A stretch of 64,000 bases of DNA from Spirochaetota bacterium (GTDB taxonomy: Bacteria; Spirochaetota; JAHITG01; JAFGFC01). A model generated the notes under the pieces. That model saw only the letters and a program-made list of their open reading frames with translations. It did no database searches and was not told the DNA's origin. Positions 1 to 45,095 of the stretch are shown piece by piece (position 1 is the first letter of the stretch; every line of letters starts with the position of its first letter). Both the position numbers and the translations under genes were made by a program. Where the stretch lies: the NCBI GenBank assembly GCA_016931325.1, contig JAFGFC010000110.1, forward strand, positions 13,710-77,709. The letters run 5' to 3'.

Positions 1-1110
1 GCTGCTTCTCAAAGAGGGCAGGGAACGTTTGCCGGCAATGAGTCTTTTAATAAAATTGTACTGAGTGTAATTATATCCTCCCCACCAGGGGGTATATTCC
101 GGATTGAGCCCCCACATGGGATCGATACAGGGGGAATTATCCAGGTCTGTTCCTATCCGGTATCCGTCCATACCCATTTCTGTACCGTAAAAAATAGAAG
201 TAGGCTCATGCCAGGTCAGGGTGAACCCCAAAGCCAGTCTCATCTTCCAGGAATCACCCCCGGCCCGCCTTAATCCTCTGTCCTTATCATGATTATCAAT
301 AAAGGAGACCATAATAGGATTGACCCCATATGTATTCTGGGCATTCTGTATCTCTGACCAGAATGTCCCGGAATCAATGGACTGATAAAAGGCCCATTTA
401 ATGATCCCGCCGGCGCCATACTCTTCCAGCGGGAAATCAAAGCAACCGTCCAGTTCATCCCCGTTCTTTACATAGTCCCCTATTTTCCAGGCTCCGTCAA
501 ATATCTCGCCGAACAGGTACCGGTCAGGAAATTTTTCTTTTAACCGGTTCCTGACATACTTCCAGTATTGATGACCATGGTCCACGGGATTCCCGTCAAA
601 TTTAGCATAATCCAGCCTGAACCCTTTCACTCCCTTGGCAGACCAGTGCGTTAAAGTATCGGAAAAGTACTGCTGTACTTCGGCCATGCCGGTTGTCCAT
701 TCCGGCCAGTCTCCCCAGGGGCTGTTATAGATCCCGGCCCAGTCAGGGTTATTGTCCACAATGGGCCCGCCCCCGATGGCTGTGCCCGGCCAATCAATGA
801 TCAGATCAATACCGTTCTGTTTCAATACTTTAACAAAATTTTTGAACTCTGCTTCCGTACCAAAATACTCATCCACGTTCCACCAGTCATAGGTATTATA
901 ACCGGCCGCTCCCCCGGCCCCGAATTTCATGGGCGGGGCAATGTAGATACAGTTGATATTAAGGCTTCTTAAATAATCCAGATTATCCAGGATCCCCTTA
1001 AAGTCACCACCTTTTCTTTTTGTATCTCCTGTAGGGTCATTGGAAGGATCCCCGTTAAAAAAACGATCCACAAAGATAAAATAGATAATGGAATTCTGGA
1101 CCCAGCCGGC
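1..1110 (-). other. GH13 catalytic (beta/alpha)8 domain portion of the giant ORF
   Basis: Hand translation gives AGWVQNSIIYFIFVDRFFNGDPSND, then GFRLDYAKF (Asp codon 610-612), LFGEIFD (Glu codon 505-507) and FIDNHDKDR (His-Asp codons 286-291). These match GH13 regions I-IV. Confidence 0.85.
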
Positions 1111-4100
1111 TGAATCCGCTCCGGTGGTCGGAAAAGAAGGCACAGAGGTATGGCCAGGTTCAACACCGGTCAAAGCCAGTATTTCGCCATTGGTGGTGAT
1201 CTCACAACTGAGATAATAATCCAGAACCTGATCAGACATGCTGTCCCAGCTGTCAGAATTTGTGGCAATCACATCCAGAGCATCAGGTGTCGCATTTCCA
1301 TCAATGGCTTCGACAGAACCGCTGGAATTTTTAAAAATAGCGACACTTAGATTGATTTCCTGACTCAAAAATCTGGATGCACCACCAATCTTGCTCAGGG
1401 GTATGGCGCATTCGATGGTTCTGTCTGATGAATTGTCGTTATATATACCCTTCTGCCAGTTCCCGTAACTGGTATCACAGGCATAACAGGTGTCATATGA
1501 TGCACCCGAAAGGATCTTTATCTGATATTCCCAGTTCACCTCTGAAGAGACATAAAGATCGGCTGAAGATATACCACGGCCGATAAAGGCTCTTGTTGAG
1601 GAATAATCGTCATTATCAATAGAGACCTGGATAAAATGTTCTCCATCAGCCCATGGTTTGCTGTTGGTAAATTTAAAATAAAGGTAAAGATTATAATAAT
1701 CAAAAGCGATCTTGAATTTTTCCATATCAAGATTGGTATAGCTGTTTCTGGCATCCTGTACTTTGTCTTTCCAGATACCCATCCCATTGGAGATAAACGT
1801 GGTGTTGGCCCCTAAATTCTTATCGGCCCAGTCAGAGGAATTGCTGTCGATGGTGATACGGCTGACATAAATTCCATCACTGAAAGGGCCGTACTCTCCT
1901 GTAACGCCCAGTCCATTCTTTGCTTTTATTTTAGCGTAATAGAACTGTCCTCTGGCAAGACCTGCGGCCGTATAGAAGGTCTGGTTGCCGGCAAGTTGCA
2001 CATCATTTAAAATATTGGTCCCACCCGGCGAGGTCCCCACGCAGATATAATAGTTGGATATTCCTGTAGGATCAATGGAACAAGCCCAGTGAAAGACGAC
2101 ATCTCCATCGCCGTCTTCAAGGCCGCTGTAAGAATTATAATTGTCCTTGTTCAGGTAATCCCATACTATACCGGCGTTTGGAGAAGAGACATCAACATTG
2201 AAACGTATATTGGAAGCCATGGAGGAGAGGGTCCCTGAAAGGTCTCTGGCATAAACATGCCAGAAGTAATTGGTGAATCCATAGGGGAGATTTTCAGGCA
2301 CGGTAAAAGAGTTGCTTTTTATATTGACACGGTAGATATTCCAGCTATTGGTGGAAAGCCCGATTTCCAGGTAATAACCTGTTATATCTCCTCCGCCTGC
2401 GGCAGACCAGGACAGCGTCGGTGTCAGATCGCTTATTGTGGCATTATGGGCCGGCGAAAATCCCCCGGGGGTAGCCGGCGGATTGTTGGTCACGGTATTA
2501 TTGGCATCCAGATCAACATCAAAATAAAAATCCAGCCTGTTGTCTCCCAGTTCTTCCTCCCGGGAGGAAAGACCGCCGGCATAATTGATCAAATTCGTGG
2601 CTGAGGAAAGACCAATACCCATAACATCCAGAGCGCCATTCCCGATAAAATCTACGGAAGAGTCCACATCGTTAGCCCAACCCACATAATCTTTATAGAC
2701 AGCCAGACTGAACCGTGCTTTTTTATCTCCCCCCAGATGGCAGATACTTCGTTTTATCCTGGCTTCAGCAATATCCAGCGTTTTATGGATCAAAAAGCAG
2801 GCATTCGTGTTTGATTGAACAGTCCAATTCAGTTCCCCCGCTTTTTTTGTTTCCACTCTGGTATCACCGATCAGGCTTGAATGGAACAGAAGATTGACAT
2901 CAGCCAGTCTTTCGTCCAGGCTGCCATGGTAATTGCTGCCCAGGGTGAGTCCCATCTCATCGCCTATCTCATCTGTTCCGCCGGACTGATTGGTATCCAG
3001 GGCTACGGCAATACCGATCCTGTAATCCTCTATGATATCATGGAAGCGAAAAAGAAAGTAAAGATAAGTGCTGTCCGATTTTATATGGAATTCAGTCAGA
3101 TCGAAATTATCAGGGTGATCAAGGGAAACATCATTCCGCACGTCATTTTTCCTGTCATACCAGATGAATTCATTATTGGTGAATTTAGAAGAGTTCGTGA
3201 TAAGCGACACAGAATCCATCCATTTGTTTAAAAGCACCACGGATTTTTCTGAAGCAACAGAAGAAGAATACTGGTCCCCGTCATAAAGGTACGCAACGCA
3301 GTGCCATTTTTCTCCTGATCTTAAATTCGATATCTTTGACTGGAAAGGCTTGACGCTGTCAACAGAACTGAAGTTGGACTGGAACCCATCGTTTTTATAC
3401 CAGTCAAAGTAACAGATCAAAGGGTCACCATCCTTATCCGTGGCTGAAGTGATATTGGCTGTGAGAACATCGTTTGTAAAGACATATTGGGGAGACAGGG
3501 TTATATCCTGGGGCGGCAGAGGAGGAGAATTGCCAACAACAAATTCGAACGCATTATCTCTGGCTGTTTGCCTGTTGCTGGTGGTGGTGGAGTTCTCAGA
3601 GCCGAAATTATAGGTGATCATCCCGTTTCGGATGACAGAAGTGTAATACCTGACGATTTTATTTTTCGCAAAGTAACCCAGAGAAGATCGTAAATAGATA
3701 TTATTGCCTGATTTATGATAGGGTTTAAGAACGCTTACATTGGTTGAACTCCAGTTATTGGTCGTATAGAAGACCTCAGCCTGATCATACCCGTCATAAG
3801 GGAAGACGCCGACAGTAATAATGACCTCATCTGAAGAATCAACTGAAACAGGATTTCTCATTGTGCCCAGACCTGCCACTTCTTCTCTTCCCGGATAATG
3901 CCATGTGTTTATCCCGGCATACTGTATTCTGTATAATAATTTCGAGTTTAATGTTGAGGCGCTGTCCCCGTAATCATTGGCGCTGGGATCAAACGGCACA
4001 CAGTCAGAGACACCGGGTTTATCTTCAGCCGGCCGGAAATAAAAGATCATGCCCAGCTTGTCGTCAACAAGGCTTCCCAGCTCTTTTAAAGGGATTCTGA

Positions 4101-7100
4101 ATTCACCCCACCCATTGGTGGGAGCGGCAAAATCCTTGTTCAATTGCAGGTCAAGCTCATCCCAGCCTATTTTTGTTTCATTCCAGATATATTTTATCAA
4201 ACGGCCGAATGTCGCCTGATCGCTTTTCAGCCATCCTTCCACCCATATATCAGGCTTGAAATCCCAGCTCACCTTGGTTGTCCCGCCCGAGATAAAGGGG
4301 TCGTCCTCATTGCCAAAGGGATCATGCTTGGACTCGAAAACAAAACCCCAGTGTGACGATTTATCATAACCTGAGGAGGTCTCGTCCCAGGGGTCCTTAT
4401 GCATGGTCCATCCGATATAGAGGTAGTTTGGATCATTGGACAGATAGAGGTCTTCTGCGTAATTATAGGGGAGATTGGACTGAACAGAGGACCCGTGAGG
4501 CGTTGTGCCCCAGTCAGCATCCTTGATACCGTCAATAAAGGGCGAAAAGGGTGAGGTTGTGGCAGAGGGCACCTGCTGGGTTTCAATGGTCTGGAAACTC
4601 CACACCGGAGCGGCCGGGCTTGTCATGCCACGCCTGTCCCTTCCCCTTATCCTCCAGTAAAAGCTCAACCCGTCAGGCAGAGATTCCGTCAGGGTATAAT
4701 TGGTATTGGTCAGATTGACGCGCAAAAGCACGGTACCGTTCAGATTGGTCACAGAAGAGAGTTCCAGAAGGTATGATGTGATCACATCATCGCCGTCAAT
4801 GATCCTGTTCCATTTTAAAGTGGGGGTCAAACTAACATTGGTGGCGTTATTCGTGGGTGATGGGTTAGAAGAGGAAGGAGGCGCAAGATTCGTCACTTTG
4901 CCGTCAGAACGGATATCCAGTTCTACCCAGAAATCAATATCCCCGTCAGAGATATCCTCATTCCAGCTGCTTTTGTCATTATATTTATCATTTGTATAAA
5001 AACGGCTGATCGACAAACTGTCAACCGCATCGCAGGTGGGGTAGGTGTATGTGGAATCGCCGCTGTTGGCCCATACAGGCGGCACAGCGTTCTTGCAGAA
5101 GGCAAAAGAGAACCTCGCTTTTTTATTCCCCTTCAGGCCCACATCCTGCCGGGCGATCCTGGCTTCGATAAGGTTGTCGGTGGGATCAATATAGCAGGTG
5201 TCAGAACCGTCAGTGGGCGGGGGGAACCAGGAACCGGAGTTGGTAAAAAGCTCGATCTTGGTCACGCTCAGACCCACATCATGGATAATGACATTATATT
5301 CCCCGTAATGCGAATTAGCGTTGGCTTTGCCGTAATCCCCCCCGATCAGGATGCCGGAGTCATCAGCCATCCAGTTCATGGAGGTATCGCCGGCATTCTG
5401 GTCTGTATCGATCGAGACAGCAACATAGGGTTTCGTGATATCATTGATATCCCTGTATCGGAATAGAAGATAGATATAATTACTGTCAAAGGTGACCCTT
5501 GTCTCGGTCATATCATAATTGCCAAGATTGGCCGTATCGAAATCACCCCTTTCGTCAGAGTTCTTGTCCTTGAAGATCCATTCATTGCTTGAGAGAACAG
5601 CGATATTCACCTGGTCAGGGGATAGACCGTGCCAGTCATCATCATCACCGTCAATGATCTTGAACGCGGCCGGAGAGGTGAATGAGGCTACAGTGCTCCA
5701 AAGTCCCTGCCGGCCATGCTCATCATAGGCCTGGACACGCCAGTAGTAGAGTGTATTGGCCAGAAGAGGGGTTTCAATGGCATAGTTCGTTCCGTACACG
5801 CTTTTATTCTCGAAAAAAGTGGTGAAATTACTGTACTCGCTGATCTGGAAAACATAGAAATAAACGCTGTCGCCGTCAGCATCAACTGGCCGGCTCCATA
5901 AAAAGGCGGGATTATAATCACCTGATCTGGTACTGACGGGAAAAGCAGGATCGGGTGAGGCCGGTGAATTATTATTGGGCTGGATCACGCATGAGGCGTT
6001 AAAGTCCAGGTCAAAGAAAAAGTCGATCACACCGTCCGGTGATTCTTTTACCTCGTTCCAGGTCTCGCCTGGCTGGGGTGTGATGCAGTCCATGGCATCT
6101 GACTGGTACCGTTCCATGGTATAGCCGTTACTGTCCTGGGCCACCATCACGGTGAAACGCAAAGTGGCATTCCTGGGATCAAGGCCCAGATCGTTCCAGC
6201 TGATGGCCGCTTCGATCGTGTCGAAATAATCAGAAGAGCTTTTTACGCCATTGGTGATCCTGGTCCAGTCCTTGAGATAGTACCTCACATCAGCATACGG
6301 GATGACCAGCTCCTTTTCCCAAAAAGCATTGGTGTTCACTTTGGTGTCAGCCAGGTCGCCAAAATATTCCTGTCCGGAAGACGGGGCTAGATTGGTATCG
6401 ATACTCAAGGCGATATAGGGATAGCCGTTGGTCAGATCTTTCATCCTGACAAGGATGTAAAGGGAATTGGTATCCGAGGTGAGCCGCATCTCTGTCAGTT
6501 CATAATTATTGGTCCCGCCGGCATAGGTCAGGGTTAACCGTATATCATTATCCGCATCTTTCCAGATCCACTCGTTAGAAGAGATGACAGAACTGTTGGT
6601 CACACTGGCAGAAGTCCCTTTCCAGTCTGAAGGGTCGCCGTCTATGAGGCGGATGCCGCTCACATCATAGGAAAAATTGGCTCCGGAATGATTGTTGATA
6701 TTGATGGACATGAGGTCAGGATAGTTATCCAGGTCATTGCCAAAAGCCCAGTTGGTGGAAGTGGAGAGGATATAGTATTCCACAGTGCAGATCTTGTTCA
6801 AAGCCGGGATCGAGGCGGTATAGACCGTTGTGTTGCTTAAAACCGTGAGCACAAAATTATCAGAACCCCAGCTGTCCGTGGTGTACCGGATATAGATCCT
6901 CTCTTCAGAGCATTTGGTAGCGCTTAATTTTACTTTTATCTGGACAGGATCGGTTACGATCACCTGGCCGGCAGAGTTGTCCGTAACAGATGTGATCTTG
7001 ATGGGGGAAGAGGAGGTGGGCAGAAAGCCGAAACGTTCTGGAGTTCCTGACGGATTGGCAGGAGAGGTGACCGTGATATAGGGGTTGGCAAAGAGAAAAT

Positions 7101-7413
7101 TGGTGAATTTAGCATCGGTATTATTACCCTGATCATTCCTGGGTATGTCCCATGTCTTATTATATCCGGTGATCCAGTATCCCGCAGACCACCCATTTTG
7201 ATCCAGCCAATTATCTTTTTGTAATTTAAAATAACTTCCATTAGCCGGCTGGATGATCCGTTTCACATAACCCGGCGGGCTGTTCGTGGCATACATGGTG
7301 CTGGTCGAATTAAGATTCCAGCCATTATAAGTACCCGGGATGTACATGGCTGCTTCCATCTTCGTGACAAGTAAAACAAGTGGCATTATCAATATGATCT
7401 TGAACATTTTCAT
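1..7413 (-). CDS. Secreted multidomain GH13 (alpha-amylase family) glycoside hydrolase, at least 2471 codons, 3' end beyond window edge
   Basis: Minus-strand frame is open from ATG 7413..7411 to base 1. I hand-translated it and met no stop; it is absent from the ORF track because no stop lies in the window, and all tracked minus ORFs here are in another frame. N-terminal signal peptide MKMFKIILIMPLVLLVTKMEAA. The interior has four repeated glucan-binding-like modules plus FN3-like domains. The last visible ~370 aa carry GH13 conserved regions. Confidence 0.9.
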   Translation of the reverse strand, partial: MKMFKIILIMPLVLLVTKMEAAMYIPGTYNGWNLNSTSTMYATNSPPGYVKRIIQPANGSYFKLQKDNWLDQNGWSAGYWITGYNKTWDIPRNDQGNNTDAKFTNFLFANPYITVTSPANPSGTPERFGFLPTSSSPIKITSVTDNSAGQVIVTDPVQIKVKLSATKCSEERIYIRYTTDSWGSDNFVLTVLSNTTVYTASIPALNKICTVEYYILSTSTNWAFGNDLDNYPDLMSININNHSGANFSYDVSGIRLIDGDPSDWKGTSASVTNSSVISSNEWIWKDADNDIRLTLTYAGGTNNYELTEMRLTSDTNSLYILVRMKDLTNGYPYIALSIDTNLAPSSGQEYFGDLADTKVNTNAFWEKELVIPYADVRYYLKDWTRITNGVKSSSDYFDTIEAAISWNDLGLDPRNATLRFTVMVAQDSNGYTMERYQSDAMDCITPQPGETWNEVKESPDGVIDFFFDLDFNASCVIQPNNNSPASPDPAFPVSTRSGDYNPAFLWSRPVDADGDSVYFYVFQISEYSNFTTFFENKSVYGTNYAIETPLLANTLYYWRVQAYDEHGRQGLWSTVASFTSPAAFKIIDGDDDDWHGLSPDQVNIAVLSSNEWIFKDKNSDERGDFDTANLGNYDMTETRVTFDSNYIYLLFRYRDINDITKPYVAVSIDTDQNAGDTSMNWMADDSGILIGGDYGKANANSHYGEYNVIIHDVGLSVTKIELFTNSGSWFPPPTDGSDTCYIDPTDNLIEARIARQDVGLKGNKKARFSFAFCKNAVPPVWANSGDSTYTYPTCDAVDSLSISRFYTNDKYNDKSSWNEDISDGDIDFWVELDIRSDGKVTNLAPPSSSNPSPTNNATNVSLTPTLKWNRIIDGDDVITSYLLELSSVTNLNGTVLLRVNLTNTNYTLTESLPDGLSFYWRIRGRDRRGMTSPAAPVWSFQTIETQQVPSATTSPFSPFIDGIKDADWGTTPHGSSVQSNLPYNYAEDLYLSNDPNYLYIGWTMHKDPWDETSSGYDKSSHWGFVFESKHDPFGNEDDPFISGGTTKVSWDFKPDIWVEGWLKSDQATFGRLIKYIWNETKIGWDELDLQLNKDFAAPTNGWGEFRIPLKELGSLVDDKLGMIFYFRPAEDKPGVSDCVPFDPSANDYGDSASTLNSKLLYRIQYAGINTWHYPGREEVAGLGTMRNPVSVDSSDEVIITVGVFPYDGYDQAEVFYTTNNWSSTNVSVLKPYHKSGNNIYLRSSLGYFAKNKIVRYYTSVIRNGMITYNFGSENSTTTSNRQTARDNAFEFVVGNSPPLPPQDITLSPQYVFTNDVLTANITSATDKDGDPLICYFDWYKNDGFQSNFSSVDSVKPFQSKISNLRSGEKWHCVAYLYDGDQYSSSVASEKSVVLLNKWMDSVSLITNSSKFTNNEFIWYDRKNDVRNDVSLDHPDNFDLTEFHIKSDSTYLYFLFRFHDIIEDYRIGIAVALDTNQSGGTDEIGDEMGLTLGSNYHGSLDERLADVNLLFHSSLIGDTRVETKKAGELNWTVQSNTNACFLIHKTLDIAEARIKRSICHLGGDKKARFSLAVYKDYVGWANDVDSSVDFIGNGALDVMGIGLSSATNLINYAGGLSSREEELGDNRLDFYFDVDLDANNTVTNNPPATPGGFSPAHNATISDLTPTLSWSAAGGGDITGYYLEIGLSTNSWNIYRVNIKSNSFTVPENLPYGFTNYFWHVYARDLSGTLSSMASNIRFNVDVSSPNAGIVWDYLNKDNYNSYSGLEDGDGDVVFHWACSIDPTGISNYYICVGTSPGGTNILNDVQLAGNQTFYTAAGLARGQFYYAKIKAKNGLGVTGEYGPFSDGIYVSRITIDSNSSDWADKNLGANTTFISNGMGIWKDKVQDARNSYTNLDMEKFKIAFDYYNLYLYFKFTNSKPWADGEHFIQVSIDNDDYSSTRAFIGRGISSADLYVSSEVNWEYQIKILSGASYDTCYACDTSYGNWQKGIYNDNSSDRTIECAIPLSKIGGASRFLSQEINLSVAIFKNSSGSVEAIDGNATPDALDVIATNSDSWDSMSDQVLDYYLSCEITTNGEILALTGVEPGHTSVPSFPTTGADSAGWVQNSIIYFIFVDRFFNGDPSNDPTGDTKRKGGDFKGILDNLDYLRSLNINCIYIAPPMKFGAGGAAGYNTYDWWNVDEYFGTEAEFKNFVKVLKQNGIDLIIDWPGTAIGGGPIVDNNPDWAGIYNSPWGDWPEWTTGMAEVQQYFSDTLTHWSAKGVKGFRLDYAKFDGNPVDHGHQYWKYVRNRLKEKFPDRYLFGEIFDGAWKIGDYVKNGDELDGCFDFPLEEYGAGGIIKWAFYQSIDSGTFWSEIQNAQNTYGVNPIMVSFIDNHDKDRGLRRAGGDSWKMRLALGFTLTWHEPTSIFYGTEMGMDGYRIGTDLDNSPCIDPMWGLNPEYTPWWGGYNYTQYNFIKRLIAGKRSLPSLRSS

Positions 7414-7416
7414 ACG

Positions 7417-8370
7417 TTAAAATTTTATGCCAAATCCGGCCTTGTGGTTCAGGGCCGCCTGTTCAAACCCGCTCAGCATATAGTTCAAGGCATAATTGAT
7501 GCTGAAACGGCTCACTTCATACCCGGCTCCAAAAGCCAGATAGGTGAAATTGATGCCGGTCCGGATGGAAAATTTATCAACCGGTCTCATTTCCAAACCG
7601 AACGACAGGTCATAATCGTTCTTCAGATAGGTGAAATCAAAAAGAAGAGCGATCTCTTTCATGCCCAGGCTCTTTTTAATGGAATATTTTATTCCCGCTT
7701 TGATAAGACGCTCTATACTGTCCTCGCCCAAGATCCCGATATCCGTGCTGACAAGGTTCAGGATGCAGAGTCCCGCATCCAGATCCTCCAGAACATTAAA
7801 GAAAAGCCCCAAATCCATGGCAAAGCCTGTGATCTTTGATGAATAGCTCTTGAAAAAGGATCGATTGTAGACGTTCTCTCCATACTCGTTATGGAGATAC
7901 TTTAAAGCGATCCCCAGCGACCCTTGAGGTTCCATATTTAAAAGGCCGCTTATTTCAGAACTGAAGGCCAGCCCCAGGACCTGTATGGTGTTCAATTCAT
8001 GATAGGAAAAAGAGTGATAGTATATTCCAATAGCGGATTGAGACCCTATGGGGGACACAAGCCCCAGGCCAAGCGAGTAAATATTAACCGCATAATAGCC
8101 GTCATCAGGGGTGAGCGCGCTTTCCGAGTTCAGCCCTGTCAGGTATTGATTGTAATCCATCTCCAGCAGGGTGTTTTTAATATTATAAAAGGCAGCCGGG
8201 TTATAGTACAGAGACTCTGCCTGCCCTGAACAGGCCACAAAAGCGCCCCCTGTTCCGCTGGATCTGGCATTCTCCGGCAGGGGCAGATGATAGCTATAGA
8301 CCTGTGAACAGACGGTCAGAACAAGTACAATGACCCGGCTCATAAATACAAGTGATCTTTTCCTGCTCAT
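7417..8370 (-). CDS. PorV/PorQ-like outer-membrane beta-barrel protein
   Basis: The tracked ORF starts at TTG 8388, overlapping the upstream TGA. ATG at 8370 gives the signal peptide MSRKRSLVFMSRVIVLVLTVCSQVYS. Motif SSGTGGAFVACSGQAESLYYNPAAF resembles the PorV/PorQ-family N-terminus. Alternating strand pattern, ends ...KAGFGIKF. Its stop lies 3 nt before the giant GH13 start. Confidence 0.6.
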   Translation of the reverse strand: MSRKRSLVFMSRVIVLVLTVCSQVYSYHLPLPENARSSGTGGAFVACSGQAESLYYNPAAFYNIKNTLLEMDYNQYLTGLNSESALTPDDGYYAVNIYSLGLGLVSPIGSQSAIGIYYHSFSYHELNTIQVLGLAFSSEISGLLNMEPQGSLGIALKYLHNEYGENVYNRSFFKSYSSKITGFAMDLGLFFNVLEDLDAGLCILNLVSTDIGILGEDSIERLIKAGIKYSIKKSLGMKEIALLFDFTYLKNDYDLSFGLEMRPVDKFSIRTGINFTYLAFGAGYEVSRFSINYALNYMLSGFEQAALNHKAGFGIKF

Positions 8371-8384
8371 ATCTTTATTGCCTG

Positions 8385-8765: not shown

Positions 8766-8768
8766 CTT

Positions 8769-10421
8769 TTAAAAACGGACATTCGCTCTGATCGTAATAA
8801 AATGGTTCTTTGCCAGCTCATTTTCAGCCCTGAACAGGGAGTCATATGATGCTGGTTCATACCGGTCATTCTCCAGATAGGAATTTAAAGCATATTCAAA
8901 ACCATATTGGGCATCATGCAACAGGACCGGATCCAGGCCGTAATCCAGGCCGACATTAATAGTACGGCTGATCTCATATTTCAATCCCACAAAGCCGTTC
9001 AAGAATTGTTTCCCAATTGAACAATCATTATCTTTGAAATCAAACCTGTAATCTTTGAATCGAAGGCTGATCAGAGTTGATAGATCCTTTAAAAGCGAAA
9101 AAAGGATCCCTGACCGCACTTCCAGACTGTTTATATCCCAGAGCGGCCCCTGGATCTTCCTGTACCGGGCATCCGGAAGAAAAGAGCAAAGGCCCAGATC
9201 AATACGGTTTTTTGTTGTCAGGCCCATGTCCTTTTCAATGGAAGACAGAAAGTATTTTTTATCGAAATTATACGTATCAAGATATCCGGTGATCACATCC
9301 CGGCTGGTCTGACCGGCCCAGAGAGAGGCTTTCAGGTCCAGGGATTTTGACATATACTTTATATTGAAACGCACCTGAGAGTATTCCGGATCGGTCCTGA
9401 TCACATCCACGGTATTGTTCGTGGAATCAAATTCGAATCTCTGTTCTTCACCGTTTTTTATTATAAAAGAAGTTTCCAGGACAATGTCAGACAGCTCCAG
9501 CTTGACTCCTGTGCCCATGATAAGGAAATTAAAATTGTCCGATCGCAAATAGGATTCAATGGGAATGCCGCCTTCTTTCTGGGTCAGCCTGGCAAAAAAA
9601 CCGCCGTTCTTTTTATGCATCCCGGCCTCAGCCCATAGGGTTATCATCTCCTGAGGATTAACACTGGCTTCCAGAGTGGCCCTTATCTCATTGTCATTGG
9701 CCGGATCATGCATGGAGTTGGTCATGAATTCATACCAGACACCTTCAACTTCCGCCCAGCTGTCCCGGTTCACTTCAGGAAGAGTAAAATCCTGCTGTAT
9801 GAAAACAAGATTCGCGCTTAAATCAGCCAGGCCCAGATCAAGGCCTGTTTTATTAATGAGCAGGTATTTTTCATTCTGATCATCTGCCGGAACTGCCAGG
9901 CAATTTTTTTGAGTGAGCCTGTCCTTTGAATAATAAAAAGAAAGGCCATAATGATCCTGGCCGAATTTCAAGAATTCCGGAGCCGGTTCCCCATAAAACA
10001 GAACAGGGGCAAGATATGGCTCGCCATAATCGTCCAGAAGCCTCAGCCCGTCGTCAAATTCCAGCACCCGTTTCCGATAGAACAGCTCGATCTGGCCGGT
10101 ATCATGGAAATATCCGACAAAGGCCCGGAAAGCCTTGAAAGAAGCATAGCTCAGTCGGGTATCCAGAACAAACCCGGCCTGGCCTCTCAGATCCCGGTTG
10201 TCATGAAAAAGAAAATTAAGAAAGAAAAGGTTATTGATCTCTTTTATTTTCAGGGAATCATAATCCGGGCTGTTGGTCCTTTTTTCCAGAGACAGGGTAT
10301 TAAAATAGTACAACTCCCCTGTCAAGCCCAGTTGGAATTCGGCCTGCCCTTCGATATCGCTCTGCGCCCGGCCGGGGGAGATCAGGATCAGAAAAAACAG
10401 TATGGATATTAAGGCTTTCAA
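8769..10421 (-). CDS. Large outer-membrane beta-barrel protein (paralogue of the 669-aa neighbour)
   Basis: Signal peptide MKALISILFFLILISPGRAQS. Tyr/Phe/Gly/Asp-rich alternating strands. Ends NHFITIRANVRF with an aromatic C-terminus. The C-terminal third aligns by eye with the 669-aa protein (GLDYGLD..GFEYALN...HFITIRANVRF versus GYGIDF..GFAYYLN...HFITLKGEFSF). ATGA overlap with the upstream gene. Confidence 0.6.
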   Translation of the reverse strand: MKALISILFFLILISPGRAQSDIEGQAEFQLGLTGELYYFNTLSLEKRTNSPDYDSLKIKEINNLFFLNFLFHDNRDLRGQAGFVLDTRLSYASFKAFRAFVGYFHDTGQIELFYRKRVLEFDDGLRLLDDYGEPYLAPVLFYGEPAPEFLKFGQDHYGLSFYYSKDRLTQKNCLAVPADDQNEKYLLINKTGLDLGLADLSANLVFIQQDFTLPEVNRDSWAEVEGVWYEFMTNSMHDPANDNEIRATLEASVNPQEMITLWAEAGMHKKNGGFFARLTQKEGGIPIESYLRSDNFNFLIMGTGVKLELSDIVLETSFIIKNGEEQRFEFDSTNNTVDVIRTDPEYSQVRFNIKYMSKSLDLKASLWAGQTSRDVITGYLDTYNFDKKYFLSSIEKDMGLTTKNRIDLGLCSFLPDARYRKIQGPLWDINSLEVRSGILFSLLKDLSTLISLRFKDYRFDFKDNDCSIGKQFLNGFVGLKYEISRTINVGLDYGLDPVLLHDAQYGFEYALNSYLENDRYEPASYDSLFRAENELAKNHFITIRANVRF

Positions 10422-12427
10422 AATGAAAACTCTCCTTTAAGGGTAATAAAATGCTGGCCGGATAGTTTTTCCTCTGCTTCTTTGAAAAAAGGCCATTTTT
10501 TTGAGACCTGATCGTTCAGATAATAAGCAAAGCCATCGCGATGTTTTTCATCGATTTCAAAATCAATTCCGTATCCCAGGGTTATCCTGAAGCGATTGAT
10601 GACCTTCCACAAACAGCCGGCATAAACATTATAAAAGGTCCGGTCAAAGGAGTAAAAAACGCCTTTTTCTATGAATTCAGAATAATCATAATGTTTGATC
10701 CTTAAGGCTGTTTTTACATCCCATCTGGCGGTCAAGTTATAGACGAGAACAAGATGGCCTTCTCCGGTACCGCTTTGCCATTTCTTGTCCTGGCCAAAGA
10801 AGATATCTCTCTGATAATAGCGGTTGAACCAGAGATCGATCAGGACATGGATATCTTTTACAGGCTCTATTTTTACATTGTTTCTGGCCACGAATTTTTT
10901 ATAACAACCGAAAAGCGTTCTGTTATAGAAATTATTCTCGTCAAAATACACCGGGTAATTAAAAAAGCGGACTGTTTCATCAGCCTGTACAAGATCGATC
11001 TGTATGTCCCAGAAGAAGGGTATGAAGGCGACCTTGAATTTTGTTTTTGTGATCGAACGGAAAGTCATGACAGAGGGTGTGATCGAATCTAAAAAACCCG
11101 GGGAAAGCCGGATCGAATCCAGTTGGAAAGAAAGTTCTTCTTTGATGTTTTTTATGCCTGTACGCAAGCCGATGATGAATTCTTCACCCGAGAAGGAAGT
11201 TTCATAAAAATATATATTTTTGGGATAGGTCGAAGAATAGCTGGCATAATCAACAGGCAGATCGTATCCGTCACCCAGTACGGTCTTCATATAAAAACCG
11301 CCCTGTTTATTCTTTATCACATACTCTGTGAAAAGATCCAGAAAATCCACGATCTGAAGGTGGCCCATGACCCCGAAACGGGACAGGTTAAATTCATCAT
11401 CCTCAAGGAAAAGCGAATTCTGCTCGATCTGCAAACGGCCATCTGAAATGGGTGAGTTGATCCAATCCGAAGCATCCGGCCTCGGGTAATCATTCCCCTC
11501 CAGGATCCCTTTCTTTACCATTCCTAAAAGCCCTATTTTAGCCCTGCCGAAATCTCTTTTTAGAACACCGCCCAGCACGTCAAAATTTTTAAACAGGGAA
11601 CGGGCGAAAAACCCCTTGAATTCAAAATATCGGGAAAGGATCTGGGCAGCGATACCCCGGTAATTGTAACCCAGCTGGCTTGATTCCTGCCGCGTATCAT
11701 AGAATTCCACGGGGAAGACGAACCGGGCATAACCGCTGGAATAAATAATACTGTCCAGACTGTGTAACGGGTCGTACAGGCCAAAAGAAGGGCAGTGGTT
11801 AAAGAAAAGAAGTGAGAACATCTTTGTATGAAGGGCCAGTTTCGATTGATACAGGCCAAGCCCTCCTGAAAGCGAGGTGTCAAGAGAGAGAAGCGTGTCC
11901 AGAAAAACATTCTCATTAATATAGATATGAGGTTCAAGCTCCAGTATATGCTTTTCCATCAGGGATGATCCCCTGTTCTTTGAAAAATCATAATAGGGAA
12001 GAGCGAGAAATAAGTAATGCCCGTTCAAAAAGATCCTGTCCGATCCTTTGATGTTGGCTTTTTTAACATAGGTGACCTTGAAACTTTCTCCCCCTTCCAG
12101 TACCATCTTGCCATGGATGATCTTGAGCTCAAAGACAATATTATCAGAGGGGATCCACTGCTCGTCATCTATGACGAATTTATATTCATAACGCCCGGGT
12201 GAAAGAGTGACAGGAATACTCCAGATGCCCATTTCATCTTTTTCTAAAACAGTTCCTGTCTTGTCCCAGTTATTGAAATTACCGGCCAGGGTCACTTTCC
12301 CGGCCTGGGGATGTTCGATAGAGAAGACCACTTTTTCGTCACGGTCCAGTTCAAGGGGAAATATCTCATAACCGCTCAATTGAACTGAGCTCTGTAAAAG
12401 AATCAGTATGAAAATCAATCTTTTCAT
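10418..12427 (-). CDS. CBM48 glycogen-binding module fused to a large outer-membrane beta-barrel
   Basis: Signal peptide MKRLIFILILLQSSVQLSG. The N-terminus VVFSIEHPQAGKVTLAGNFNNWD...GIWSIPVTLSPGRYEYKFVIDDEQWIPSD fits CBM48. The remaining ~560 aa are beta-strand rich and end QHFITLKGEFSF. Confidence 0.7.
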   Translation of the reverse strand: MKRLIFILILLQSSVQLSGYEIFPLELDRDEKVVFSIEHPQAGKVTLAGNFNNWDKTGTVLEKDEMGIWSIPVTLSPGRYEYKFVIDDEQWIPSDNIVFELKIIHGKMVLEGGESFKVTYVKKANIKGSDRIFLNGHYLFLALPYYDFSKNRGSSLMEKHILELEPHIYINENVFLDTLLSLDTSLSGGLGLYQSKLALHTKMFSLLFFNHCPSFGLYDPLHSLDSIIYSSGYARFVFPVEFYDTRQESSQLGYNYRGIAAQILSRYFEFKGFFARSLFKNFDVLGGVLKRDFGRAKIGLLGMVKKGILEGNDYPRPDASDWINSPISDGRLQIEQNSLFLEDDEFNLSRFGVMGHLQIVDFLDLFTEYVIKNKQGGFYMKTVLGDGYDLPVDYASYSSTYPKNIYFYETSFSGEEFIIGLRTGIKNIKEELSFQLDSIRLSPGFLDSITPSVMTFRSITKTKFKVAFIPFFWDIQIDLVQADETVRFFNYPVYFDENNFYNRTLFGCYKKFVARNNVKIEPVKDIHVLIDLWFNRYYQRDIFFGQDKKWQSGTGEGHLVLVYNLTARWDVKTALRIKHYDYSEFIEKGVFYSFDRTFYNVYAGCLWKVINRFRITLGYGIDFEIDEKHRDGFAYYLNDQVSKKWPFFKEAEEKLSGQHFITLKGEFSF

Positions 12428-12429
12428 GT

Positions 12430-13932
12430 TTAAAAGCTTACCTTTAAATAAAGATGTATCTTATGTTCCATATTATTGTCCGATTCCACAAAGTCATCGT
12501 CGTTCACCAGGTCATTGTTGACAAAACTGTCATTCCCATACTCGAGATAAAAATCCGTGCCGGGGCCGAAATTGTACTGGATCTGGGACCAGAGCGTATT
12601 GCGGCTCCGGTAGATCTCATCGACGACAAGAACACGGTTCAGACTTTTTAGTCTTTTAGTAATATTGATCGAGAATTCACTGCCATAGATATAACGAAGA
12701 TATTCTGACTTTATATTCTTTATCTTGAACTGAAGTTTAACAAAGGTGATCTCGTCGTTCATGGTCAGCTCCCAGAATAGATGAGACCATCTGTCATCCT
12801 GAAGATAGACAGATTGAGTGGTCCCGTCCAGTTTGGTGATCTGTATCCTGTCCCAGTTAAACTGATGTAATGTTTGATACCATATTTTAAGGTTGAAATT
12901 ATTGATGAATTCAATATAACTCTCGAAAAAATCATCTGTCTGGCTGTACGTAATTGTATGTTTTTTGTAATAATCCCTGTGATAGGTGAATGTTACGGCT
13001 TTTAAGGGTGGCCGGTATTTCGTCTCGACAAAGTAACCCCTCTGGTCATACCGGTTATCATTGTCGTACTCTTTGGAAAGATAGGCCCTGAAATGCTCTC
13101 CTATCTCTCTGGCAGATAAAATAAGATCAATATCACCGGCCCCCAGGCCGAGAGCCTGAAAATCAAGATTCCTGCGATATTCGATCTTGAAGGCGTCATC
13201 ATTCTCTTTCAGGGTATAATCGCCGGGGGTGTCGCTTTTTGCGCCTTCTACCGTAAAATAATTTTTCAGAATATTGAACCACACATCAGCGGCAACGACC
13301 ACATTGTAATTATTCAAGCCCCCGGGCCATTTCTTGTAAGTGGTTGTGGCGCCCAGGCGCAGCTTTTCTTTTATCAGATCATCGTAGACCCTCAGGCCAT
13401 AACCGTCGACCTGCTGTTCATACATATGGGCATTGAAAAATTTCAGGTGAAACCCGGGCATGAACCCATCCATCTCCAGAGACGCCCCTGCTACTTTTGA
13501 CGTGTCGGTGGCCCCATCGTAATCCCATTTGTCTTTGTCATTGTTCACCAGATTTAAAAGCGGATCGCCCAGGAAGAAGCGGTTCTGTTTGGCAAAAAGA
13601 AAGATATCAAACCGGTCCCGGCTGCCTATTCTGTAATGAACATGGGACTCGGCCAGTTGAAAGAGCTGATTTTTATACTGGGAATTTTCTCCATAAGCCG
13701 TATGATCATAGTTGGCATAGGTTTTTATAAAAAAATCAACGCTTTCCAGAGGATTGGTAAAGAAACGAAGTTCCAATCTGTGCCAGGGATAATCCAGCTG
13801 CCATTTATAACTGCCTGTATCACGCCTGATATCGAACGATGTCTCATAACTCCCGTTCAGGTATGTTTCAGCCTGAATGCCAAGCGGAAGACCAAGCAGG
13901 ATAATGATTAAATTTATGATCGGTTTCATCAT
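12430..13932 (-). CDS. Large outer-membrane beta-barrel protein
   Basis: Signal peptide MMKPIINLIIILLGLPLGIQAETY. Aromatic-rich alternating strands. Ends HKIHLYLKVSF. Only 2 nt separate it from the next gene, and it has an ATGA overlap with the upstream gene. Confidence 0.55.
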   Translation of the reverse strand: MMKPIINLIIILLGLPLGIQAETYLNGSYETSFDIRRDTGSYKWQLDYPWHRLELRFFTNPLESVDFFIKTYANYDHTAYGENSQYKNQLFQLAESHVHYRIGSRDRFDIFLFAKQNRFFLGDPLLNLVNNDKDKWDYDGATDTSKVAGASLEMDGFMPGFHLKFFNAHMYEQQVDGYGLRVYDDLIKEKLRLGATTTYKKWPGGLNNYNVVVAADVWFNILKNYFTVEGAKSDTPGDYTLKENDDAFKIEYRRNLDFQALGLGAGDIDLILSAREIGEHFRAYLSKEYDNDNRYDQRGYFVETKYRPPLKAVTFTYHRDYYKKHTITYSQTDDFFESYIEFINNFNLKIWYQTLHQFNWDRIQITKLDGTTQSVYLQDDRWSHLFWELTMNDEITFVKLQFKIKNIKSEYLRYIYGSEFSINITKRLKSLNRVLVVDEIYRSRNTLWSQIQYNFGPGTDFYLEYGNDSFVNNDLVNDDDFVESDNNMEHKIHLYLKVSF

Positions 13933-15919: not shown

Positions 15920-15949
15920 AGTGCGAATGTCAGGGTGACAGAATCCGGT

Positions 15950-16936
15950 TCAATTACGCTTTCGGCCAAAGGTCATGATGTCCTGAATGGAATATTTTTT
16001 TGTTTCTGCCAACAGTTCCATTATATTGATCTGGGTATAACAGACACCTTTATCGTAGTAAATGGTCTTATTGGCCGAATTCTCTTTGTTGTTCTTTAAA
16101 ATATCTATAAGTGAAAGGAGGGAATTGGTGAAAAGAGCGATCCTGTTAATATCCCCTGACACAGCGATCTCTGTTTTTAACAGAGAACTAATCCCCTCCC
16201 TGGTCGCGCCAAAAGAAGCCACCTTGATCTCGATATCTTTTCTCATTTTACGTAGTTCACGGCCTAAGAGGACAGCCTGCGGATCTTCATCAACGATAAT
16301 TCCCCTGAGATCATTTGAAAGATGTGAGACCCAGAAGGAAAGCCTGTTCTTATCAAGTTTTTCCGGGTTGTCATAATAATTTGTAAAAACAGCAATATTA
16401 TTCTTCTCCTTCAGATACAGGGAAATGGAATGAACAAGCTGCTGCTGCCTCTCTGACGGGATTTTACAAAGAAAAAAAAGGAAAGAGTTCCTTTTTTTTC
16501 TGGTGAATTGGCAGAAAAGATCTCCCAGTCTCCTCCCCAGGTCTGAAAAATCAGTTCCAATGAAAAAATCATAGTATTGTTCATTGGTGATGTTGCTGGA
16601 GATCAGGGCTAATTTGATATCCCTTCTTTTTAGCATGCGGTATAATTTTTCAAGACGGTCGATATCCTCTTCTTCCGCAATAACAACGGATGCGCCCTTT
16701 TTAACAAAAAAGGCCACGTCTGACCGCAGGCGGGAAGAAGGAGAACAGGCGAATATCTTGAAATTCTCCTTGAAGGATATTTCCTTGGCTGTTTTTTCAA
16801 TTTCCTGATTCAGGTAGTGAAGGTTTTTATTTTTAAAATACAATCCGATTATATTATTCTGCTGTTTGCCGGCATAACAGCTCCAGAAGAGTAACGATAT
16901 CAAGATCAAAATATATGTTTTGATCTTCCGCATCAT
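15950..16936 (-). CDS. Exported, possibly lipidated, periplasmic-binding-protein type I-like protein (putative sugar binder or sensor)
   Basis: Signal peptide ILILISLLFWSC. Alternating beta-alpha pattern with VVIAEEEDIDRLEKLYRMLKRRDIKLALISS...FFIGTDFSDLGRRLG and LRGIIVDEDPQAVLLGRELRKM..IKVASFG, reminiscent of LacI/ribose-binding folds. The assignment is weak. Confidence 0.4.
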   Translation of the reverse strand: MMRKIKTYILILISLLFWSCYAGKQQNNIIGLYFKNKNLHYLNQEIEKTAKEISFKENFKIFACSPSSRLRSDVAFFVKKGASVVIAEEEDIDRLEKLYRMLKRRDIKLALISSNITNEQYYDFFIGTDFSDLGRRLGDLFCQFTRKKRNSFLFFLCKIPSERQQQLVHSISLYLKEKNNIAVFTNYYDNPEKLDKNRLSFWVSHLSNDLRGIIVDEDPQAVLLGRELRKMRKDIEIKVASFGATREGISSLLKTEIAVSGDINRIALFTNSLLSLIDILKNNKENSANKTIYYDKGVCYTQINIMELLAETKKYSIQDIMTFGRKRN

Positions 16937-20692: not shown

Positions 20693-20708
20693 AAAGCCGT
20701 AGAACTCC

Positions 20709-21557: not shown

Positions 21558-21572
21558 GGCAATGGATCCTTT

Positions 21573-26859: not shown

Positions 26860-26862
26860 ATT

Positions 26863-32403: not shown

Positions 32404-32483
32404 TTATGTTTTTTTAAAACTTGTACATAGTATTGAAAGAGCTTGACAAGCGTTTTAAAAATAATATTATAAACCTTTCAAAA

Positions 32484-33803: not shown

Positions 33804-33811
33804 GGAGAAAT

Positions 33812-45091: not shown

Positions 45092-45095
45092 CGCT

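Follow-up and report, generated by a model that had tools for sequence, protein, structure and literature searches.

A cassette of predicted plug-less outer-membrane barrels and CBM48 modules in a candidate T9SS-linked alpha-glucan utilisation locus

Nine consecutive genes in a 64,000-nucleotide stretch of DNA (the window) are, on balance, best read as a T9SS-linked alpha-glucan (starch/glycogen) utilisation locus of an uncultured Gram-negative bacterium, with large barrels as its maltodextrin route; we lean towards this reading without holding it firmly. The core of the locus is a cassette of a CTD surface protein, a PorV-like barrel, a 500-aa barrel (B500), a CBM48::barrel fusion and a small CBM48 protein. 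This cassette is present in more than 60 loci of MAGs labelled Cloacimonadota, Eisenbacteria, Zixibacteria, Fibrobacteraceae, Gemmatimonas and WOR-3, and all carriers are uncultured MAGs. No description of the cassette was found in the literature, in agreement with the initial annotation, which considered the architecture unlike described systems. The cassette recurs beside amylases and maltose-type importers in many little-studied phyla and is therefore probably their equivalent of the Bacteroides Sus system.

Organisation of the locus

The initial annotation described nine minus-strand genes joined by short overlaps and gaps, and the same coordinates were obtained from the open reading frame list and from reading the junctions:

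15950-16936, minus strand, PBP-like gene, 328 aa
14783-15919, minus strand, CTD surface-protein gene, 378 aa
13929-14786, minus strand, first PorV/PorQ/PorP-family barrel gene, 285 aa
12430-13932, minus strand, B500 gene, 500 aa
10418-12427, minus strand, CBM48::barrel gene, 669 aa
8769-10421, minus strand, B550 gene, 550 aa
8385-8765, minus strand, small CBM48 lipoprotein gene, 126 aa
7417-8388, minus strand, second PorV/PorQ-family barrel gene, 323 aa
1-7413, minus strand, N-terminal part of the GH13 gene, open frame to base 1, 2471 codons

Direct reading of the junction sequences gave ATGA at 14783-86 and 13929-32, so that the 285-aa barrel gene overlaps both flanking genes by 4 nt, and TTGA at 10418-21 and 8385-88. 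The intergenic gaps measure 2 nt (12428-29), 3 nt (8766-68), 3 nt (7414-16) and 30 nt (15920-49). The initial annotation took these spacings to imply one translationally coupled operon. After a gap of only 15 nt the minus-strand run goes on to 23912 with hisD (16952-18322), a TPR gene, rpsA and ispH; position 16936 is therefore a functional rather than a structural boundary. The closest relative, L006, has a 4-nt overlap between hisD and the PBP gene. The locus also extends beyond the window edge, and in the syntenic locus L087 seven further genes follow, the last of which encodes an alpha-glucan phosphorylase.

The 328-aa product of the first gene had been called an exported PBP-like protein, and its Peripla_BP_4 match lies just over the cutoff (35.6 vs 35.1 bits). 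It is exported, has a possible lipobox (LFWSC) and has no PDB relative by sequence. The gene is kept solely in L006, where the homologue is 46% identical; in L087 a TrmB-type sugar regulator takes its place.

Conservation and neighbours of the cassette

The cassette was found in 33 genome loci from many phyla. A search from the B500 side, in which CBM48 was not used, yielded 39 metagenome loci; 30 of these were informative, and 28 of them have the start of a CBM48 domain no more than 900 nt downstream of B500. Usual neighbours are MalEFG-like ABC importers, GH13 or GH57 enzymes, and a debranching enzyme or phosphorylase; GH57, glycogen debranching enzyme, GH13, alpha-glucan phosphorylase and a TrmB sugar regulator share cassette loci. 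At least one importer component lies beside the cassette in 19 of the 33 genome loci, and in L005 the SBP most resembles binding proteins for maltose, maltodextrin and acarbose. Synteny of the CBM48::barrel with alpha-glucan genes, which the initial annotation suggested seeking in MAG collections, is conserved across phyla. Its statement that no inner-membrane importer is encoded is correct for the window, and L087 has none either, but this reflects the lineage or the window edge, as an SBP and permeases of the MalEFG-like type adjoin the cassette in at least 13 of the 33 genome loci.

The giant enzyme was confirmed as GH13 (PF00128, 1.2e-34 in the protein encoded at 1-7413). Its full length is 3270 aa (P0133), of which the window holds the N-terminal 2471. 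The protein is secreted and contains four repeat modules of ~240 aa (confirmed by BLAST) together with fn3 and Ig domains, and its catalytic domain is of the cyclomaltodextrinase/neopullulanase type, with PDB sequence matches reaching ~1e-32 to 3e-34. The C-terminal 800 aa, outside the window, comprise fn3 and weak CBM20-like modules, and no CTD is detectable at the C-terminus. The giant GH13 does not accompany every cassette: no GH13 adjoins it in L001 and L003.

A family of large barrels

HMM searches of the window proteins returned no match to TonB_dep_Rec, Plug, SusD, LamB, OprB or ABC permease (E<=0.1). The locus is thus, as proposed earlier, without a TonB-dependent SusC, a SusD or a LamB signature, and its three large proteins fall outside the TBDT, SusC, LamB and OprB families. 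Neither the large window barrels nor 34 diverse family members matched any Pfam or NCBIfam model.

The AF2 model of B500 (pLDDT 81, pTM 0.71) is a plug-less barrel of ~22-24 strands whose Foldseek matches are TBDT and usher barrels only (TMq 0.43-0.56, 7-10% identity); no PDB sequence match was found for B500, which forms 107 representative clusters among 1.84 billion proteins. For the 669-aa protein, a model of moderate confidence with unmodelled loops (pLDDT 70, pTM 0.60) consists of a beta-sandwich followed by a plug-less barrel of ~22 strands, and it matches generic large barrels only (TM 0.2-0.33). The structural neighbours of both models are exclusively 22- to 26-strand barrels of low identity. 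The proposed Foldseek comparison of the two models thus revealed large barrels with neither a plug domain nor a close PDB relative. The 550-aa protein (B550) qualifies as a barrel by homology: it aligns to the 669-aa barrel by hhalign (99.9% probability, E 4e-31) and by BLASTP (5e-07 across 320 aa), and the 669-aa barrel aligns in turn to B500 (hhalign, 97.8% probability, E 1e-12). By these alignments, the B500, B550 and 669-aa barrels form one superfamily for which there is no Pfam or NCBIfam model. B550 has no CBM48 and is a lineage-specific extra paralogue of the 669-aa barrel, restricted to the close relatives L001, L003, L006, L007 and L087. An open barrel of 22-24 strands would need something occluding its pore.

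CBM48 modules

Both CBM48 assignments were upheld. The 126-aa protein, with lipobox VLSC, matches CBM_48 (6.2e-15) and AMPK1_CBM (1.7e-13) and carries FNNW, YKF and W binding motifs. In the 669-aa protein, the CBM48 occupies residues ~25-112 at the N-terminus (CBM_48, 1.3e-08), and W54, K83 and W91 are invariant. Among 134 CBM48 domains from cassette loci, the positions aligned to AMPK beta1 W100, K126 and W133 are kept in 129, 127 and 109, respectively. In most loci the CBM48::barrel gene is followed by one for a small CBM48 protein; in other phyla there are between one and three of these, or forms that carry two CBM48 modules. Judged by loop-length parity in the model, the fused CBM48 would lie on the periplasmic/lumen side. 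The initial annotation envisaged a barrel carrying its own glycogen-binding module for capture; the fusion is real, but surface capture is doubtful because loop parity puts the module on the periplasmic side. Taken with the preceding analyses, neither a match to a known barrel family, nor a non-barrel fold, nor a failed CBM48 or GH13 assignment, nor an already described synteny was encountered.

Surface proteins and T9SS pairing

The 378-aa protein is a secreted surface protein with a conserved N-terminal domain of ~220 aa that is without family assignment and matches the N-terminus of large homologues, not their Glucodextran_C domain. The FlgD-Ig tail reported earlier is seen as matches just under cutoff (FlgD_ig 6.3e-05, CHU_C 9.3e-05) and is a T9SS-type C-terminal sorting domain (motif FSPNDDGVND...WxGxDxxG) combining type A, type B and FlgD_ig features. 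When 17 aligned CTD tails were compared, TIGR04131 type B was matched in 14, the PorU CTD in 15 and type A in 10. Homologues of 375-2100 aa head the cassette in most loci.

Both small barrels resemble PorV/PorQ proteins, as had been claimed: the 285-aa barrel matches PorV_fam NF033709 (3.6e-12) and PorP/SprF (8.5e-06), and the 323-aa barrel matches PorV_fam (1.1e-12), PorV (4.7e-07) and PorQ (6.2e-07). Their NF033709 scores are 46-48 bits against a 90-bit cutoff, and the window's PorV-like and CTD matches all lie under curated cutoffs. Orthologues of the 285-aa barrel matched PorV_fam in 18 of 18 aligned cases (best 6e-26); those of the 323-aa barrel were found in L003 and L087. L087 has a 994-aa protein whose type A CTD scores 26.1 bits (cutoff 23), directly followed by a PorV/PorQ protein (104.8 bits, cutoff 90). 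The 285-aa barrel presumably serves the CTD protein encoded upstream of it as cognate shuttle or anchor. Pairing of PorV-like genes with T9SS-type cargo is not new, since cognate T9SS cargo-shuttle pairs have been described, such as SprB-SprF and PG1035-PorP (PMC9143113, PMC12618676). The arrangement is the same, with a CTD gene followed by a small PorV/PorQ/PorP barrel gene (15919-13929 in the window, and in L087), but these pairs lie outside Bacteroidota, form part of a glycan utilisation locus and, in the window, score under family cutoffs with a tail of mixed type. T9SS has been reported in further FCB phyla (PMC11285876). The T9SS-type signals make the host lineage appear FCB-like, and we infer that the locus depends on T9SS.

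Proposed function and alternative explanations

In the pathway that we favour, the giant cell-surface GH13 would cleave the polymer extracellularly, and the T9SS-type CTD surface proteins would be held at the outer membrane by the PorV/PorP-like barrels encoded directly downstream. Maltodextrins would then cross the outer membrane via the large plug-less beta-barrels, of which the ancient pair B500 and CBM48::barrel probably forms a heteromer, with B550 as a third paralogue in this lineage. The fused CBM48, and probably also the small CBM48 lipoprotein, may receive or ratchet the glucan chain in the periplasm, from where it would pass to a MalE-type binding protein and ABC importer, presumably encoded elsewhere in the genome. 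Gene content, domain identities, the barrel fold, paralogy of the three barrels, the kept CBM48 binding residues and the cross-phylum synteny are observed, whereas sugar transport by the barrels, its direction, heteromer formation and the periplasmic placement of CBM48 are what we infer. Counting against this pathway are the moderate confidence of the 669-aa model, the under-cutoff PorV-like and CTD matches, the need for an element occluding the barrels, a GH13 with no detectable CTD, the absence of an importer from the window and L087, the lack of an adjacent GH13 in L001 and L003, and the likeness of a periplasmic domain fused to a barrel to polysaccharide exporters.

Alternatively, the barrels could be structural anchors or scaffolds for a surface amylase/binding complex (an 'amylosome'), with sugars entering via unrelated porins. 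Very large surface proteins do lie beside every cassette, PorV/PorP-like barrels such as those next to them act as anchors under the T9SS paradigm (PMC9143113), and a giant GH13 with no detectable CTD needs other attachment. However, 22-24 strands far exceed the need of an anchor, the PorV/PorP-type anchors of this locus being only ~285-320 aa; a CBM48 that is periplasmic by loop parity cannot help a surface complex; and the tight linkage to MalEFG-type importers suits an uptake route. We therefore regard a scaffolding role as doubtful.

An usher-like secretion or assembly pore for the giant surface proteins seems improbable. The usher barrels FimD and PapC are among the best Foldseek matches of B500 (TMq 0.50-0.56), but at only 7-10% identity, and TBDT barrels fit about equally well; moreover, the usher plug, the N- and C-terminal domains and a chaperone gene are all absent. 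A very large exported protein always adjoins the cassette and the GH13 has no recognisable T9SS signal, as such a pore would lead one to expect, yet the leading large proteins have T9SS-type CTDs, so an export route is already present, and a protein pore needs no strictly conserved glucan-binding residues in CBM48.

Export of an alpha-glucan (capsule or exopolysaccharide), with the periplasmic CBM48 guiding polymer into the barrel like the periplasmic domains of PgaA, BcsC or AlgK/AlgE, is very improbable. The loci share no conserved glucan synthase or polymerase; what is conserved around the cassette serves catabolism or import (GH13, GH57, debranching enzyme, phosphorylase, maltose-type SBP and permeases, TrmB), and a secreted GH13 would degrade the product. 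In favour of export, a periplasmic polymer-binding N-terminal domain with a large barrel resembles polysaccharide exporters, and glycosyltransferase and epimerase genes lie divergently upstream in L007. A divergent but ordinary SusC/SusD, LamB or TonB-dependent MalA-like system is scarcely credible: although TBDT barrels are among the Foldseek neighbours of both models, the window proteins and 34 diverse members lack Plug, TonB_dep_Rec, SusD and LamB matches, the barrel has no PDB sequence match (TM-scores 0.2-0.56, 7-10% identity), and B500 is all barrel from the signal peptide on, which leaves no space for a plug or TonB box.

Comparison with known systems

The proposed T9SS-linked uptake locus resembles the Bacteroides SusCDEFG/PULs in combining a surface GH13 amylase, starch-binding proteins and a ~22-strand outer-membrane barrel in one locus, with a regulator that responds to sugar (TrmB in L087) and catabolic enzymes further downstream. 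It differs in having no plugged, TonB-box SusC and no SusD lid, in a distinct barrel family outside Pfam, and in a binding module that is a CBM48 fused to the barrel N-terminus and predicted to be periplasmic. Where Sus uses lipid anchors, the surface proteins here have T9SS-type CTDs and dedicated PorV-like barrels.

The proteobacterial LamB and MalEFGK2 route would share TonB-independent crossing, followed by a MalE-type protein and CUT1 ABC importer, which adjoins the cassette in many phyla. LamB, however, is an 18-strand homotrimer, whereas here two or three paralogous ~22-24-strand barrels occur with a fused CBM48 and a CBM48 lipoprotein, and no LamB/OprB match was found. Caulobacter MalA, a TonB/ExbBD-dependent maltodextrin receptor (cited in PMC6851124), is likewise a ~22-strand outer-membrane barrel for maltodextrins. 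MalA has a plug and is TonB-dependent, whereas the window proteins have no plug, TonB box or TBDT match. The exporters PgaA, BcsC and AlgE/AlgK also join a periplasmic polymer-interacting domain to an outer-membrane barrel. These have 16-18-strand barrels and TPR domains and lie in synthase operons; here, in contrast, the domain is a CBM48 and the context is catabolic and import-related.

Organization of the locus

The locus is best described as a putative glycan utilisation locus whose core is a new outer-membrane module. The nine consecutive minus-strand genes that the initial annotation had placed between base 16936 and the window edge were recovered in the ORF list with identical coordinates, and the close spacing described there was borne out when the junction sequences were read: neighbouring genes overlap by ATGA at 14783-86 and 13929-32 and by TTGA at 10418-21 and 8385-88, and are otherwise separated by 2 nt (12428-29), 3 nt (8766-68 and again 7414-16) or 30 nt (15920-49). 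The last gene has 2471 codons inside the window and is still open at base 1. By reading of the sequence, each of the nine proteins carries an N-terminal signal peptide, and a lipobox is seen in the 126-aa protein and probably also in the 328-aa PBP-like protein, whose Peripla_BP_4 match lies marginally over the cutoff. Three genes encode the large barrels:

12430-13932 (-): 500-aa barrel (B500)
10418-12427 (-): 669-aa protein with a CBM48 domain followed by a barrel (with its orthologues, the CBM48::barrel)
8769-10421 (-): 550-aa barrel (B550)

Upstream of 16936 the same strand continues, after only 15 nt, with hisD, a TPR gene, rpsA, ispH and a molybdopterin oxidoreductase gene, and in L006, a locus from a close relative, hisD and the PBP gene overlap by 4 nt. 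The upstream limit at 16936 is therefore a functional boundary and not a proven transcriptional one. Scans for consensus promoters (51 promoter-like sites versus 40 +/- 6 expected) and for terminators (21 terminator-like sites versus 18.5 expected) did not rise above background and allowed no operon boundary to be drawn. As listed, the hisD ORF (16952-18322 (-)) overlaps the TPR gene (18238-19023 (-)) by 85 nt and opens with a 28-residue extension that does not look homologous; the true start is probably an internal ATG (MLKIIDHK...).

CBM48 modules

Both predicted CBM48 domains were found with the two family models, PF02922 and PF16561 (cutoffs 22.4 and 26.8 bits). Bit scores are 55.7 and 51.0 for the 126-aa lipoprotein (E ~6e-15) and 35.5 and 35.3 for the N-terminal domain of the 669-aa protein (E ~1e-08). 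The motifs FNNW, YKF and W align with what we take to be the carbohydrate contacts W100, K126 and W133 of AMPK beta1. The equivalents of these residues are nearly invariant, being kept in 129, 127 and 109, respectively, of the 134 CBM48 domains from cassette loci, which speaks for real glucan binders and against mere re-use of the fold.

A weak match to the NCBIfam T9SS plug model NF052315 (model positions 295-345 of 385, E 1.5e-4) also falls on the CBM48 core of the 126-aa lipoprotein (8385-8765 (-)). This is a hint that a sandwich of the CBM48 type forms part of the T9SS plug; that such a sandwich is able to plug a large barrel is only a lead.

Fold and family of the large barrels

The initial annotation described the large proteins as beta-barrels, and structure prediction agrees for the two that were modelled. 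In the AlphaFold2 model of the 669-aa protein (pLDDT 70, pTM 0.60), an N-terminal beta-sandwich, which is the CBM48 domain and not a plug, is followed by ~22 long antiparallel strands. In that of B500 (pLDDT 81, pTM 0.71), ~22-24 strands fill the whole chain and the barrel begins directly after the signal peptide. For both proteins, the PDB structures returned by Foldseek are all large barrels of a generic kind, with 7-10% identity: SlpA, LptD and the TonB-dependent transporter (TBDT) OprC for the 669-aa model (TM 0.2-0.33), and TBDT barrels together with the FimD/PapC ushers for B500 (TMq 0.43-0.56). No match to the barrels was found in a PDB sequence search.

The 669-aa and 550-aa proteins are paralogues (BLASTP 5e-07; hhalign 99.9%, E 4e-31). 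Between B500 and the 669-aa barrel, single-sequence BLAST finds nothing and shallow profile comparison gives a weak signal; their homology is visible only with broader alignments, in which the two families align over the first 40% of the barrel (hhalign 97.8%, E 1e-12). The barrels have in common a motif, F-x-L/F-x-D-P/G-L-x-x-L, which lies in the long loop, modelled at low confidence, that joins strands 5 and 6. Neither the 500-aa nor the 550-aa protein matches any Pfam or NCBIfam model, and no Pfam match was found in 34 diverse B500 members. When 1.84 billion representative proteins were searched exhaustively with the profile, only 107 B500 clusters came out. The B500 family is thus rare and unnamed.

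Known outer-membrane glycan systems had been reported absent from the locus, and the searches are consistent with this. Neither the plug (PF07715) nor the TonB_dep_Rec barrel (PF00593) was matched at E<=0.1 in the nine proteins or the 34 B500 members, and SusD/RagB was found neither in the window proteins nor among the called genes of related loci (L001-L007 and L087). LamB (PF02264) and OprB models gave no match in the window proteins or the B500 members, and the predicted barrels have ~22-24 strands, as against 18 and 16. No ABC permease model was matched among the nine locus proteins at E<=0.1.

Conservation of the cassette

A word-indexed search found ~7 full-length relatives of the 669-aa protein, with the same gene order on their contigs. 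Synteny around the CBM48::barrel is indeed conserved in MAG collections, as documented by 33 genome loci and 39 metagenome loci. The genome loci, all distinct and with a common core, come from a scan seeded on CBM48 motifs, in which each GTDB species was represented by a single genome, and from local BLAST comparison of all locus ORFs with the window proteins. The core consists, in order, of a large or small surface protein with a T9SS-type C-terminal sorting domain (CTD), a PorV-like barrel, B500, the CBM48::barrel (640-930 aa) and between one and three small CBM48 proteins; B550 and the second PorV-like gene are restricted to close relatives of the window. All carriers of the cassette are MAGs, labelled Cloacimonadota, Eisenbacteria, Zixibacteria, Fibrobacteraceae, Gemmatimonas, WOR-3, Lindowbacteria and 'Spirochaetes'.

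Because the genome scan was seeded on CBM48, it was repeated from the B500 side on metagenome contigs, using a narrower alignment (A6), as the broad one (A5) has no sufficiently conserved stretch. This second scan yielded the metagenome loci. When adjacency is counted by domain coordinates, 28 of the 30 informative loci have a CBM48 domain that starts at most 900 nt downstream of B500, and a PorV-like gene lies ahead of B500 in 18-21 of 25. B500 and the CBM48::barrel therefore form a nearly obligate pair that is specific for alpha-glucan modules.

One metagenome contig, L095 (Ga0272442_10000739, 8001-9446 and downstream), carries the CTD protein, the PorV-like barrel and B500 but, alone among the long loci, has no CBM48 gene within 8 kb downstream. 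This may be a cassette variant with a different partner.

Possible connection to type IX secretion

The 378-aa surface protein scores 19-20 bits with TIGR04131 (cutoff 35), 14.6-17 with TIGR04183 (cutoff 23) and 23.3 with FlgD_ig (cutoff 27). The FlgD-Ig tail initially assigned to it is thus supported by a FlgD_ig/CHU_C-like match, but one that stays just under the cutoff; orthologous tails pass FlgD_ig, for example that of L005 (32.2 bits). Within the C-terminal 100 residues, the protein and its orthologues share the motif (N)PFSPNGDGxxD ... WDGxDxxG, and the aligned CTD tails match type B in 14, the PorU CTD in 15 and type A in 10 of 17 cases. Directly downstream of the CTD protein, a PorV-family barrel is encoded in 18/18 cases.

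The 285-aa and 323-aa barrels match the PorV/PorQ family at ~1e-12, their scores of 46.5 and 48.2 bits lying below the cutoff of 90 (NF033709). The PorV_fam match is present in all 18 aligned orthologues of the 285-aa barrel (best 6e-26), and a paralogue in the syntenic locus L087 passes the cutoff. In Bacteroidota, type B cargo is paired in the same arrangement with cognate PorP/SprF-like shuttles or anchors (PMC9143113, PMC12618676), and reports of T9SS extend to further FCB phyla, among them Fibrobacterota, Cloacimonadota and Gemmatimonadetes (PMC11285876). Because the order of CTD protein and downstream PorV-like gene matches these described cargo-anchor pairs, the PorV-like proteins, earlier called PorV-type shuttles, are best read as probable locus-specific anchors of the CTD proteins. 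No T9SS core gene (SprA/Sov, PorKLMN) was found among the larger ORFs scanned in the 64-kb window.

The N-terminal domain of the 378-aa protein was also considered as a Glucodextran_C module. This was rejected, since its counterpart in alignments with the large homologues is their N-terminal domain, and their Glucodextran_C is found at another position. An HMM of the GH13 repeat modules does not match it, and BLAST against the GH13 protein gives only E 0.07. The glycan-binding role first assigned to the protein is therefore no more than putative.

The giant GH13 protein

The GH13 assignment holds clearly (PF00128, 120.8 bits, E 1.2e-34, cutoff 22). The catalytic domain is nearest to cyclomaltodextrinase, neopullulanase and maltogenic amylase structures, with PDB sequence matches down to 3e-34. 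A database copy of the same protein, P0133, gives the full length as 3270 aa. Read by eye, regions II (GFRLDYAKF), III (FGEIFDG) and IV (FIDNHD) look intact, and region I (DLIIDWPG; window 1-1128 (-)) is atypical, without the usual histidine. Four repeat modules of ~240 aa were found (pairwise BLAST 1e-5 to 1e-28):

residues 251-473: first repeat module
residues 583-839: second repeat module
residues 1388-1640: third repeat module
residues 1846-2076: fourth repeat module

The fourth is weakly similar to Glucodextran_C, and its orthologue in another protein, P0134, is over the cutoff for this family. No T9SS CTD was detected in the 3270-aa protein, although its neighbours carry CTD-type tails.

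Import and catabolic context

An SBP_bac_1 gene and two BPD_transp_1 permease genes lie beside the cassette in 13 of the 33 genome loci, and at least one importer component in 19, many contigs ending too early to tell. The binding protein of L005 has its closest similarity to those for maltose, maltodextrin and acarbose. Genes for GH13, GH57 and glycogen-debranching (GDE_C) proteins follow the cassette in several loci. L087 is fully syntenic with the window, and its giant GH13 (3299 aa) is 53% identical. The genes flanking its shared part are, in order:

head of L087: TrmB-type sugar regulator
19893-21903, directly after GH13: two tandem paralogous secreted proteins of ~330 aa (phmmer 1e-37 between them)
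after this pair: 994-aa fn3 protein, type A T9SS CTD over cutoff
after the 994-aa protein: PorV/PorQ protein (104.8 bits, passing the cutoff of 90)
next: 374-aa protein
next: CBM48-like lipoprotein
next: alpha-glucan phosphorylase

The two ~330-aa proteins have no family match. Such a pair probably also lies just beyond base 1 of the window.

Predicted topology and proposed function

If strand 1 of the 669-aa barrel is assumed to start in the periplasm, as in canonical outer-membrane proteins, the long loops of the model (43, 31, 30, 25 and 39 residues) all have extracellular parity and the turns of the other parity are all 2-4 residues; B500 follows the same pattern. CBM48 is linked to strand 1 by ~15-20 residues. 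From loop parity and this linker, the fused CBM48 should therefore be periplasmic or in the lumen, not at the surface, to judge from a model of moderate confidence. This speaks against the surface glycan capture originally proposed for the fused module, which more likely receives, ratchets or gates an incoming chain than captures starch outside the cell.

Overall, the balance tips slightly towards the locus being an alpha-glucan uptake route. In this scheme, the giant GH13 would depolymerise glucan at the surface, maltodextrins would pass a heteromer of B500 and the CBM48::barrel (with B550 in addition in the window lineage), CBM48 modules would capture the chain in the periplasm, and a MalEFG-type system would import it. 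A more specific reading, which we offer tentatively, is that B500 and the CBM48::barrel form an unknown, TonB-independent class of translocon, a plug-less heteromer of 22-24-strand barrels with CBM48 as plug or Brownian ratchet. Its loop 3, folding inward with the motif F-x-L-x-D-P-L-x-x-L, would be conserved, and the periplasmic CBM48 would respond to substrate and draw long alpha-glucan chains into the periplasm. Such a translocon would be the SusC/SusD counterpart in Cloacimonadota, Fibrobacterota, Zixibacteria, Eisenbacteria, Gemmatimonadota and allied candidate phyla.

Other roles for the barrels appear less probable. That they are scaffolds or anchors of a surface amylase complex is unlikely. 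It is more doubtful still that they are an usher-like assembly pore for the giant proteins; the usher likeness of B500 is at fold level only (TMq 0.50-0.56, 7-10% identity), and usher and chaperone HMMs gave no match in the window proteins. This protein-pore reading, as well as the very improbable one in which the cassette exports alpha-glucan, is opposed by the import and catabolic gene context, the conserved CBM48 binding residues and the lack of a synthase. There is hardly any likelihood that the locus is a known system, merely divergent; it resembles a Bacteroidota PUL and the LamB/MalEFGK logic in function, but does not belong with SusC, SusD, LamB or TBDT systems.

The phyla concerned dominate sediments, digesters and soils and have few or no cultures. 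To our knowledge, how large glycan fragments pass the outer membrane in bacteria outside Bacteroidota and Proteobacteria is largely unknown. The uptake reading offers a candidate open to testing: a conserved module of five genes that combines a new barrel family, a fused putative glycogen-binding domain and an apparently strict alpha-glucan specialisation, present in at least eight phylum-level groups. Its outer-membrane core family has neither a Pfam/NCBIfam model nor a solved structure, and a full-text literature search, which was not exhaustive and included one Cloacimonadota paper, found no description of the cassette. If confirmed, the module would represent a third starch-uptake architecture beside SusCD and LamB, provide a marker by which alpha-glucan use can be annotated in MAGs, and carry the cargo-anchor logic of T9SS over to glycan utilisation loci outside Bacteroidota.

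Remainder of the window

No transporter or CAZyme gene was found among the larger ORFs scanned in the rest of the window, which appears housekeeping-like, and no rRNA lies within the 64 kb. The features are as follows:

25876-27774 (+): MoxR-like gene (read from sequence) with DUF58/VWA genes
29415-29488 (-): tRNA
32421-37397 (+): Rnf complex operon
39027-41933 (+): 968-aa ORF
43062-43134 (+): tRNA
43152-48877 (+): trigger factor-ClpX-Lon

The sole Pfam match of the 968-aa ORF, at residues 296-393 (2.7e-09), is the FliG C-terminal domain; FliG-like proteins do not usually have such an architecture.
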